Positions 20,563 to 57,270 of a stretch of 64,000 nucleotides of DNA are shown here, one piece after another. The notes under the pieces are model-generated. The model did no database searches, was not told where the DNA came from, and worked only from the letters and a program-made list of their open reading frames with translations. The translations under genes and the position numbers were made by a program. How positions within the stretch are numbered: position 1 is the first letter of the stretch; each line of letters begins with the position of its first letter. The DNA is from a virus, in the IMG/VR virus record IMGVR_UViG_3300026097_000980, positions 91,509 through 155,508 of that record; one strand, written 5' to 3'.

Positions 20563-20878
20563 CTGACTTTTGGATTACAAGGCAGTCAACCCCGAAGCCT
20601 CATGCGGCCAGTGCGAATGTTTCATCATTTGCAGTTATTTTATTTTGCTTCTACGACCGGGTATACTCCCAATCCTAACGGCTTTCACATTGCCGGTAAC
20701 TCCACTCGCCTAATCATCTCGCCGTCGAATCCTTGATCTGCCCCATCATAGATACACCACGTTCTTCTCCTACTATTTCACCTTTCGGTCTACTCTCTCG
20801 GAGTTGTAGATGTATCTATGGTGGAACAGCCGGGAGTCGAACCCGGGTCCGTCAACCTTTCGGTCTGCTTCATCGTTA
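20563..20878 (-). ncRNA. ssrA: Circularly permuted (two-piece) tmRNA, tag ANDETFALAA
   Basis: Acceptor piece with T-arm CCGGGTTCGACTCCCGG and CTGTTCCACCA ending at 20819; 74-nt intervening stem; coding piece GGGGCAG...GGATTCGAC from 20744; G3-U70 pair; tag ORF 20632-20600. Confidence 0.92.
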
Positions 20879-20887
20879 CAGTATTAT

Positions 20888-38334: not shown

Positions 38335-38386
38335 ACAAACTACTAAGACAATCAGGGACATAGTCCTTATATAATAAAGTAGAGTT

Positions 38387-38413
38387 GAAAGGGTCTTCGG
38401 ACCCTTTCTTTTT
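38387..38413 (+). terminator. Intrinsic terminator
   Basis: GAAAGGGTC-ttcg-GACCCTTTC-T5. Confidence 0.85.
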
Positions 38414-38450
38414 GGTTGACAATTCATAAATCATCAGCTATATTAGCAGT

Positions 38451-39218: not shown

Positions 39219-39243
39219 AAAAAGCCCCTTTCGGGGCTTTTTT
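39217..39243. terminator. Bidirectional terminator
   Basis: A7-GCCCC-tttc-GGGGC-T6 between convergent genes. Confidence 0.85.
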
Positions 39244-39251
39244 GTGTCTAC

Positions 39252-39413
39252 TTAAAAATCAGTGACAATCCACTTCGGACCGAAGCTGGTTTTACCTTCA
39301 CGCCTTTTGGCTAGGATATGTTCCAGTTCTGCTTTATGAAGCTCTATCATTTTGTCTTTGCGGTGAGATAGTGAGGCTTCATACATTTTTTTGATTAGTT
39401 CATTTTGTTTCAT
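39252..39413 (-). CDS. Hypothetical 53-aa protein (MKQNELIKKMYEAS...)
   Basis: SD AGGAGG; TTGACT-18-TATAAT upstream. Confidence 0.6.
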   Translation of the reverse strand: MKQNELIKKMYEASLSHRKDKMIELHKAELEHILAKRREGKTSFGPKWIVTDF

Positions 39414-39489
39414 GACTTTCGCCTCCTGTTGTATAATTATTTAGCATTATACGCACAGTTTGCGCAAAAAGTCAAGCTCGATTTTGACT

Positions 39490-39560
39490 TCGAGGGTAGC
39501 GAACACTCTCCGTCGGGCTCGAGCACACCCATCACCCTAACGTAACGGTCCCAAGGTGAA
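39490..39560. ncRNA. Candidate ncRNA containing permuted 23S rRNA H69-H71 segments
   Basis: GGTAGCGAA (39495-39503) and TAACGGTCCCAAGGT (39543-39557) versus 23S TAACGGTCCTAAGGTAGCGAA; intergenic, GC-rich, hairpin-flanked. Confidence 0.55.
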
Positions 39561-39563
39561 TTC

Positions 39564-39812
39564 TTATGTTTCGTGTCCTTCAGTGTAAGGACGAACACCG
39601 TGTTCTTCCAGTTTGTCTTCACGGATGCATACCGAGTCGTGTATTTCCCAGCCATTGGGATAGATGGAGTTAAGAGTTTGTATGATAGGCACAGGATTGT
39701 TTTCTGCCCAGTAAACACATTCCTGTTCAGTTTCAAATTTGGGATCATACCAAAGGAAACCTTCGTGCATGCCCTGACTCATCTGTGTGACCAATATCAT
39801 CACATACCACAT
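39564..39812 (-). CDS. Hypothetical protein (FETEQEC motif)
   Basis: Hydrophobic N-terminus, two Cys. Confidence 0.6.
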   Translation of the reverse strand: MWYVMILVTQMSQGMHEGFLWYDPKFETEQECVYWAENNPVPIIQTLNSIYPNGWEIHDSVCIREDKLEEHGVRPYTEGHET

Positions 39813-54197: not shown

Positions 54198-54274
54198 GCG
54201 CCTATAGCTCAGTTGGTTAGAGCAGGGGACTCATAATCCCTTGGCCCGAGGTTCGAGTCCTCGTGGGCGCACCA
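54198..54274 (+). tRNA. tRNA with CAT anticodon, Ile2-like (elongator Met not excluded)
   Basis: Cloverleaf, AGGGA-like arm with CTCATAA loop, encoded CCA. Confidence 0.9.
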
Positions 54275-54279
54275 TAACA

Positions 54280-54355
54280 CTCTCGGTAGCATAATGGATA
54301 ATGCAACAGCCTTCTAAGCTGTGGATTGCAGGTTCGAGTCCTGCCCGGGAGGCCA
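54280..54355 (+). tRNA. tRNA-Arg(TCT)
   Basis: ACAGC-CTTCTAA-GCTGT anticodon arm; GGTTCGAGTCC; CCA. Confidence 0.92.
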
Positions 54356-54359
54356 CTTT

Positions 54360-54446
54360 GCCAGTATGGTGGAATTGGTAGACACAATGGACTTAAAATC
54401 CATCGCCCGCAAGGGTATCCCGGTTCGAGTCCGGGTACTGGTACCA
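54360..54446 (+). tRNA. tRNA-Leu(TAA)
   Basis: ATGGA-CTTAAAA-TCCAT arm, long variable arm, CCA. Confidence 0.93.
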
Positions 54447-57156: not shown

Positions 57157-57270
57157 ATAATAAAAACAATAACAATTTTATTATAGACATTACCGATCAC
57201 ACTGCGCAAGCTCCGATTCGCTCCCGGGGTGCAGTGGGGGGACTACGATCTTGTAGTCCCCTTTCTTTTT
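57157..57270 (+). ncRNA. Candidate trans-acting sRNA with anti-GGAGCGAA loop
   Basis: Promoter TTGTTA-17-TACTAT; A-rich 5' hairpin; hairpin with loop ATTCGCTCC (57216-57224); terminator GGGGACTAC/GTAGTCCCC plus T tract. Confidence 0.7.

Follow-up and report, generated by a model that had tools for sequence, protein, structure and literature searches.

The window locus and its RNA module

The window analysed here, a stretch of 64,000 nucleotides (nt), is the final 64 kb of a 155.5-kb IMG/VR virus record (IMGVR_UViG_3300026097_000980, ~42% complete) from a large phage that carries ribonucleotide reductase, GroEL, DNA ligase, a permuted transfer-messenger RNA (tmRNA), and three tRNAs. The list of open reading frames (ORFs) leaves a sole sizeable gap, 39414–39563, within a block of small minus-strand genes. 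At this gap lies an RNA module (39471–39567, minus strand) that is delimited by a full-length match to a covariance model and carries two segments, arm 1 and arm 2, complementary to adjoining parts of bacterial 23S ribosomal RNA (rRNA). The module is one member of a widespread and apparently undescribed family of phage RNA, which we propose may base-pair with the large ribosomal RNA of the host.

Two short genes flank the module. Upstream, an 82-aa gene (39564–39812, minus strand; ORF list) ends in a TAA stop at 39566–39564, and the module starts 1 nt past this stop; homologues of the gene in relatives share 81–90% identity, and no Pfam family was matched by it. Downstream, a 53-aa gene (39252–39413, minus strand) begins with an ATG preceded by an AGGAGG ribosome-binding site. 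The module abuts the sigma-70 promoter of this second gene, TTGACT-18-TATAAT (39446–39475, minus strand), which matches the consensus at 11/12 positions. Eleven homologues of the 53-aa gene were found, each behind the same promoter cassette, and this cassette is kept in relatives both with and without the RNA module. The unit of promoter, leader, and 53-aa gene (39414–39475, minus strand; L006, L013–L018, L022–L037) is preceded by at least six different upstream genes in relatives, and in L006 the same promoter-leader sits before a different gene. We take the conserved cassette to be a point of modular gene shuffling.

Comparison with relatives, retrieved by way of the flanking proteins and a DNA pattern, identifies the GC-rich part of the module as an optional insert. 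In locus L033, the 82-aa gene, the promoter, and the 53-aa gene are all in place, and precisely the 85 nt at 39478–39562 (minus strand) are missing; L006, L015, and L017 likewise have no insert. Where present, the 85-nt insert is seen with the promoter cassette behind three upstream genes, of 82, 229, and 157 aa. The element is 91–99% identical between relatives, against 81–88% for the flanking genes, and its rare substitutions fall at unpaired positions of the minus strand or leave wobble pairs there, but break a plus-strand hairpin. Both the element and the promoter 17-mer are single-copy in the window and in the 155-kb record. None of the usual signs of a mobile element (terminal inverted repeats, target duplication, a second copy) was found at the module, and a link to a homing endonuclease was rejected, with no such domain in the upstream genes and none nearby. 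We also rejected a coding role. On the minus strand there are stops in all frames; a 31-codon frame starting with ATG runs into TAG in L018 and L022, and into TAA in the window. On the plus strand, a 46-aa frame is broken by indels in relatives. Among loci L007–L012 (JGI samples 3300007609 and 3300026097), several contigs begin or end at the module, a pattern typical of assembly breaks where co-occurring strains would share an identical stretch with divergent flanks.

The minus-strand RNA is predicted to fold into a series of hairpins. Hairpin P1 (or H1; 39532–39559, minus strand) pairs UCACCUUGG with UUAGGGUGA around the loop GACCGUUACG in an RNAalifold prediction from five subfamily variants, among which an AU pair becomes GU in the window and L022 has lost both sides of one U-G pair. 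Covariation supports the corresponding helix in the family's standard class, described below. Arm 1, CCUUGGGACCGUUA (39543–39556, minus strand), is antisense to 23S 1917–1930, with one G-U pair at U1926. Its core in the window, CCUUGGGACCG, differs by one A>G from the family core CCUUAGGACCG, whereas relatives carry the exact core, with A (T on the plus strand) at the variant position, giving 15/15 identity to 23S. The window's A>G is seen again in L175 and L242. Hairpin P2 (39515–39530, minus strand) is an inverted repeat with a GGGU/GCCC stem, and its loop GCUCGA (39519–39524) is complementary to the tail UCGAGC (39476–39481). Hairpin P3 (39486–39514, minus strand; GAC..GAG/CUC..GUC), obtained in minimum free energy folds of the window and L007, has a weak stem in the window's subfamily and bears in its loop arm 2, UUCGCUAC (39496–39503, minus strand), antisense to 23S 1930–1937. 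The exact arm 2, read at 39503–39496, is unchanged in every copy of the window's subfamily; from the start of arm 1 to the end of arm 2 the distance is 60 nt. A last hairpin, H3 (GAAGUCAA/UUGACUUU followed by U5; 39466–39491, minus strand), has a predicted energy of only –7 kcal/mol and would form a weak terminator-like end overlapping the –35 element.

On the plus strand, the arms read as pieces of 23S rRNA. The sequence GGTAGCGAA at 39495–39503 equals Escherichia coli 23S 1929–1937 at 9/9 positions, and TAACGGTCCCAAGGT at 39543–39557 equals 23S 1917–1931 at 14/15 (rrlH, L019), in swapped order relative to 23S. The original prediction for this locus, made from the sequence without database searches, had reported both permuted pieces at these positions and identities, and comparison with E. 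coli rrlH reproduced them. It had left the strand ambiguous. Family-wide evidence points to one strand: a co-oriented ORF of at least 60 codons ends within 25 nt upstream of 54 of 100 modules versus 27 of 500 random positions (~5%), the terminators of short-type modules (see below) run in the 23S-antisense orientation, and the stems hold many G-U pairs, possible only on the strand antisense to 23S. From these sequence features, we assign the RNA to the strand antisense to 23S, the minus strand in the window. Several details of the prediction agree with this assignment. In the ORF list, both flanking genes are likewise read from the minus strand; the single T>C change becomes, on the minus strand, a G-U pair with U1926 that recurs in other lineages; and the AAGUCAA/UUGACUU hairpin with its U run is real, its 3′ arm being the –35 hexamer of the sigma-70 promoter. 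The better-paired plus-strand hairpin proposed alongside, GAGGGU/ACUCUC, is present in the window, but it is broken in relatives L018 and L022 and so is not conserved.

Other features of the window were recorded along the way. The permuted tmRNA gene lies at 20600–20879 (minus strand; Rfam RF04321, 81.7 bits) and encodes the tag ANDETFALAA, and a tRNA-Met/Arg/Leu cluster occupies 54198–54446 (plus strand). The ordinary terminators of this phage are compact GC hairpins of 25–35 nt. At ~38.4 kb (38375–38445, plus strand), a compact GC hairpin terminator is fused straight onto a TTGACA-17-TATATT promoter, and a bidirectional terminator at 39219–39245 separates the 53-aa gene from a convergent 58-aa Hc1-like gene.

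A family of modules in phage 3′ untranslated regions

A search for the swapped-order pattern, CTTAGGACCGTTA and TTCGCTAC separated by a gap of 15–45, retrieved 67 IMG/VR loci from many samples, on contigs of up to 344 kb. As a control, the same arms in the opposite order retrieved 0 loci. The original prediction had named lack of arm conservation in related phages as the sign of a chance match; checked across phages, the arms are conserved. In 596 Gb of bacterial genomes, the pattern occurs almost exclusively in genuine 23S genes, which match it because helix 68 of some phyla contains GUAGCGAA 39 nt away, and the single clearly non-23S match is L126. The two arms are a phage-specific, recurrent pair. 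A 25-mer of the element is absent from the 596 Gb of genomes, which speaks against a host or bacterial origin.

To free the arm counts from the arms themselves, a second scan used two scaffold pieces only, the P2 hairpin GGCGGCUGCUGCC and the tail AAGUGAGC. It returned at least 120 loci, and the counts were made on 120 unique sequences. The motif CUUAGGACC is found in 98 of these (82%), CGCUAC in 93 (78%), the arm 1 core CCUUAGGACCG, antisense to 23S 1920–1930, in 91, and the full arm 2 UUCGCUAC in 78. By our own estimate, coincidence would yield two neighbouring oligomers, an 11-mer and a 6-mer, complementary to the same unbroken length of rRNA with a probability of ~1e-6. In 21 of the 120 (~17%), an alternative loop is present, ACGCCAUUC or UUACGCCA (the latter followed by GA in some), which is the antisense of 23S 1968–1976 or 1971–1978. 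Loci with arm 2 replaced in this manner include L148, L152, L163, L174, L177, L187, L192, L227, L257, and L263, among others, and in some alternative-loop members P2 is preceded by GGCGUCA, a possible pairing partner of the alternative loop. Bases that the search did not specify are complementary to 23S as well. Arm 1 of the short type is prolonged to 19 nt of exact antisense of 23S 1911–1929, and in L096 ~30/35 nt match the antisense of 23S 1895–1929.

In the family, which we define by these scans and by a covariance model (R2, below), arm 2, (U)UCGCUAC, lies in a hairpin loop 3′ of arm 1, with 44–65 nt from the start of arm 1 to the end of arm 2. We distinguish two architectures. The long type, with 58–65 nt from arm 1 to arm 2, consists of the stop codon, the P1 5′ strand, arm 1, a small hairpin, the P1 3′ strand, P2, P3 with a loop formed by arm 2, an A-rich linker, and a tail; the 60-nt arm span of the window copy lies inside this range. 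In the short type (44–50 nt), a 5′ hairpin is followed by the prolonged arm 1 and then by an intrinsic terminator that has arm 2 in its loop. Stems diverge around the constant elements: P3 is built from 50 distinct stems around the same loop, and P1 from 34 distinct stems, in which AU/UA and CG/UG changes compensate each other. Between the P2 loop and the tail, the complementary sequences differ by subfamily (GCCACU/AGUGGC, GCCGAU/AUCGGC, UCCGUUGA/UCAACGGA, and GCCGG/CCGGC elsewhere). This suggests a pseudoknot, a reading that rests only on the differences between subfamilies; in a per-sequence shuffle test the P2-loop/tail pairing was not significant (median p 0.46). In the standard class (L038–L103, L148–L263), the P2 core GCGGCUGCUG is also the exact antisense of 16S 519–528, and a variant core, GGCUGCUGGC, is antisense to 16S 517–526. 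The 530-loop region of 16S rRNA is universally conserved. This complementarity may be a coincidence, as the same stretch is P2's own stem, and the window's own P2 is without the 16S-antisense core.

The window copy was placed in the family with covariance model R2, built from 19 standard-class sequences of other phages, none from the window's phage group. R2 matches the window at 39471–39567 (minus strand) with 38.6 bits and an E-value of 6.7e-9, over model positions 1–97 of 97; this is the only match in the window and in the 155-kb record. Relatives L018, L022, and L031 are matched to a similar degree, and no match was found in the empty-site relatives. The standard-class P2 GGCGGCUGCUGCC and tail AAGUGAGC are absent from the window copy, which has GGGUGUGCUCGAGCCC and AAAAUCGAGC instead. 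These hold a hairpin and a loop-complementary tail at the same places, as they do in L045, L048, L095, and L101. By its sequence, the window copy is assigned to a divergent subfamily with its own P2 and tail, a P1 extended over CCUUAG, and a weak P3. No family in Rfam 15 matched the window element at E-values up to 10, nor seven other member loci; CRISPR-repeat mimics, ribozymes, riboswitches, and tRNA-like elements were considered and dropped, with no Rfam or ARAGORN match. GenBank phages gave no match to the window region or to two other family members, and literature searches found no paper describing the module.

The genes upstream of the modules fall into 37 clusters, and the module is therefore a portable unit of 3′ untranslated regions (UTRs). 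The biggest cluster, at 20 of 105 loci, pairs the short type with a gene for a 618-aa protein ending in ...DPDCLSCDG (for example L049, L051, L063, L067, L074, L081, L092, and L102). From its C-terminal motifs, judged by eye and with no family search, this protein resembles a ribonucleotide reductase large subunit. At 15 of 100 other loci, the module is directly followed by a sigma-70 promoter, as in the window.

Proposed pairing with 23S helix 69–70

In our best explanation, to which we give a probability of roughly 55%, the module is a folded 3′-UTR phage RNA that base-pairs with host 23S rRNA. Its carriers are uncultured phages, many of them large. In the window, minus-strand transcription of the 82-aa gene would continue into the module and make it the 3′ untranslated end of that mRNA. 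The hairpin scaffold of the module would present two conserved segments, with P1 carrying arm 1, the P2 loop able to pair with the 3′ tail, and the P3 loop exposing arm 2. Arm 1 CCUUAGGACCGUUA (a G-U variant in the window) and arm 2 UUCGCUAC are exact complements of 23S 1917–1930 and 1930–1937, which together form the contiguous stretch 1917–1937 running from the 3′ strand of helix 69 into helix 70. A swapped order of the arms would be expected of a single folded RNA whose two separate loops lie side by side on a continuous target. The foot of helix 69 forms intersubunit bridge B2a and is a site of ribosome recycling. The RNA would meet its target in the free or assembling 50S subunit or in nascent rRNA. 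There it might prevent the 50S subunit from maturing or the subunits from joining, tether the mRNA to the 50S subunit after termination, or shield or mark the rRNA site; we favour none of these. In the window phage, the module also contributes H3, a weak hairpin resembling a terminator and joined to the promoter of the 53-aa gene. Nearest-neighbour calculations, local only and ignoring the rRNA's own structure and proteins, give duplex energies of –34.7 and –23.4 kcal/mol for the arm regions with naked 23S 1900–1950, compared with –8.9 and –5.9 kcal/mol for the internal hairpins. The original prediction of an rRNA-binding guide or splint thus keeps its core: the minus-strand, 23S-antisense reading is favoured and the arms are the conserved centre of a family, and the binding to ribosomes itself is a prediction. 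A more specific proposal, on which we are evenly divided, is that of a trans-acting phage RNA that grips 23S 1917–1937 by two loops side by side. Such an RNA would allow the phage to block 50S subunits or their precursors, or else to mark, tether, or protect them, and might also cover 15 early ribosome-binding sites of the window phage.

A number of observations weigh against pairing with 23S. The target is partly helical and buried in mature ribosomes, and access to it is only presumed. The module is dispensable, as close relatives lack it at the same site, and in a 262-kb relative no module was found in the 73% of its genome searched. Arm 1 is not invariant: its final three bases vary in the scaffold-selected set, and one U is missing in L022 and also in L173, L215, and L251. 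Fold energies are unremarkable relative to shuffles on either strand (z –0.35 to –2.0). Predicted folds let both arms pair internally, the 5′ half of arm 1 with a variable partner and the standard-class arm 2 with the tail AGUGAG, so that part of the arm conservation could be structural. Lastly, inside the single window the rRNA match is at chance level. With blastn-short scoring against rRNA and shuffled windows for comparison, the best single match of the element scores 26, which is outside the window's top 13 and below the 28–34 that shuffles reach; a two-piece score for nearby pieces in any order is 43, 8th in the window.

The original prediction also singled out AGCGAAC, at 39498, as a Shine-Dalgarno "barcode" through which the RNA might act as an adaptor between ribosomes and mRNAs. 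This heptamer is the complement of arm 2, and it occurs in the window in five copies away from ribosome-binding sites (39498 included) versus 5.8 expected by chance. It is also part of a recurrent ribosome-binding site, GGAGCGAA(C). Fifteen sites of the form GGAGCGAA, 1–8 nt, ATG are found in the window, three on the minus strand (132, 4011, and 17956) and twelve on the plus strand (41638, 47475, 55183, 55936, 56129, 57356, 58283, 58903, 59381, 60071, 62131, and 62594). Ten of the fifteen are in the early block at 55–63 kb, behind TTGACA-17-TATACT promoters. All fifteen read (UA)AGGAGCGAA, equivalent to 23S 1926–1937 minus U1931, so that their leaders are similar to the rRNA stretch complementary to the module. 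Across other loci that carry the module, 1.6 Mb in all, GGAGCGAA occurs 13 times against ~50 expected, 6 of them at start codons, and is thus not enriched. The site is peculiar to the window phage, and an adaptor to barcoded mRNAs finds no support at the level of the family. A candidate small RNA in the same early region (57195–57270, plus strand), noted in the original prediction, has a hairpin loop, AUUCGCUCC, one base off the arm-2 loop AUUCGCUAC; this loop is complementary to GGAGCGAAU-type ribosome-binding sites, and a canonical terminator follows the RNA.

Among the other explanations, the one we take most seriously, while considering it rather unlikely, is that the module is a structural 3′ end only, serving mRNA protection from exonucleases, or termination or insulation in the manner of promoter-early stem-loop (PeSL) cassettes, with the rRNA complementarity unused and the arms conserved for internal tertiary pairing or protein contact. 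PeSLs are conserved terminator/promoter cassettes (PMC2839356, PMC4122927). The placement of the module immediately past stop codons, often with a sigma-70 promoter immediately behind it (the window and the 15 loci above), the H3 hairpin and U run formed with the promoter's –35, the predicted internal partners of both arms, and the occurrence at gene-shuffling junctions, locally behind three upstream genes and family-wide behind 37 clusters, all agree with such a role. It leaves unexplained the low odds of coincidence for an 11-mer and adjacent 6-mer on contiguous rRNA, the second loop class complementing 23S 1968–1978, and arm extensions that track the rRNA sequence. Moreover, the internal partners vary and the arms are fixed, the phage's ordinary terminators do not resemble the module, and there is one copy per genome, unlike PeSLs. 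A plain PeSL-like terminator-promoter spacer with a chance rRNA match was our interim reading and is now kept only within this structural alternative. It seems improbable to us that the arms act mainly on the window phage's own early mRNAs, where arm 1 CCUU(A/G) and arm 2 GUUCGCU would cover the ribosome-binding sites and shut off early translation. The fifteen GGAGCGAA-N1-8-ATG sites, ten of them early, offer a perfect 7-nt complement to arm 2 and 5 nt to arm 1, readable from the sequence. Yet the absence of motif enrichment in other module-bearing loci means that this action cannot explain family-wide conservation, the leaders are duplicated cassettes and represent one evolutionary event, and the pairing amounts to 5+7 bp around a bulge.

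Two further alternatives are very improbable in our judgement. A plus-strand transcript mimicking 23S helix 69–71 would be a decoy for a toxin or the small RNA at 57 kb, as raised in the original prediction, or for an enzyme; the plus strand does fold slightly better than shuffles (z –1.8 to –2.0), and AGCGAAC can sit in a plus-strand hairpin loop. The proposal did not hold up against the lack of any plus-strand promoter found in the search, the hairpin broken twice in relatives with six broken cells on the plus strand, and the upstream ORF orientation, terminators, and G-U pairs that put the RNA on the other strand family-wide; as the pieces are permuted, helix 69–70 cannot form. Chance resemblance to rRNA in an ordinary spacer was our first conclusion from the single-window statistics, where seven other two-piece matches equal or better that of the element and shuffled windows contain 9.2 such pairs each at its score. 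It was dropped after the cross-phage scans: 67 loci against none in the order-swapped control, at least 120 loci selected by scaffold in which the arms are kept, and a covariance match at E 7e-9 contradict it.

If pairing with 23S is true, phages can act through an RNA on what is most conserved in the translation machinery of the host, and could do so across hosts because the 23S target is universal. Questions would follow on host shut-off, control of ribosome assembly, and mRNA-ribosome tethering, and antisense inhibitors of ribosomes might be modelled on the module as a template found in nature. Should the pairing not be in use, the modules still make up a large and clearly delimited family of structured RNAs in phage 3′ UTRs, and one that is not in Rfam. 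We know of no bacterial or phage RNA that targets rRNA by base pairing, nor did the searches made here bring one up.

Comparison with known systems

The likeness to a 23S fragment or an I-CeuI-type homing site is confined to the plus strand, where 15 (14 in the window) and 9 bases are identical to 23S 1917–1937. In the module, the pieces are permuted, with unrelated sequence between them and a best local score of 26–31, no homing endonuclease gene is nearby, and the functional strand would be antisense. A 23S gene or pseudogene fragment was rejected, the pieces being permuted, the best gapped local alignment spanning only 24 columns, and Rfam giving no large-subunit rRNA match. In the bacterial searches, true 23S genes of metagenome-assembled genomes from Acidobacteriota and Acidimicrobiales (L108, L110, L117, L129, L140) break off exactly at 1929/1930 and continue into unrelated sequence, a pattern that could be explained by an insertion, such as an intron, at the classical homing site.

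With the PeSLs of T4-type phages (PMC2839356, PMC4122927), the module shares an intergenic stem-loop beside a strong sigma-70 early promoter, conservation above that of the flanks, and a location at junctions where small genes shuffle between relatives. In the window, the promoter keeps 11/12 consensus positions, and the adjacent H3 hairpin with its U5, at only –7 kcal/mol, is a candidate terminator. PeSLs are many-copy repeats in the hyperplastic regions of one genome, whereas the module is single-copy, occurs in other phages without an adjoining promoter, and has conserved bases that complement rRNA. The window phage belongs to the jumbo phages and may not be of the T4 type.

A closer parallel to the proposed mode of binding exists in eukaryotes. 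The small nucleolar RNAs (snoRNAs) U3 and snR30/U17 (m1-m2) pair with pre-rRNA through two short elements in one fold, and the module would likewise be a folded RNA presenting two short guides to neighbouring rRNA segments. It differs in having no box C/D or H/ACA motifs or known protein partners and in being a viral RNA in a bacterial host, and no homology is claimed.

Bacteria also produce base-pairing small RNAs from 3′ UTRs, of the CpxQ, SroC, and DapZ type. Like these, the module lies just past a stop codon, would be co-transcribed with the gene before it, and displays short conserved segments on a folded scaffold; the short type further shares the use of the mRNA's intrinsic terminator. 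CpxQ, SroC, and DapZ-type RNAs target mRNAs, whereas the module complements 23S rRNA, is encoded by a phage, and carries two seeds in swapped order for one contiguous target.

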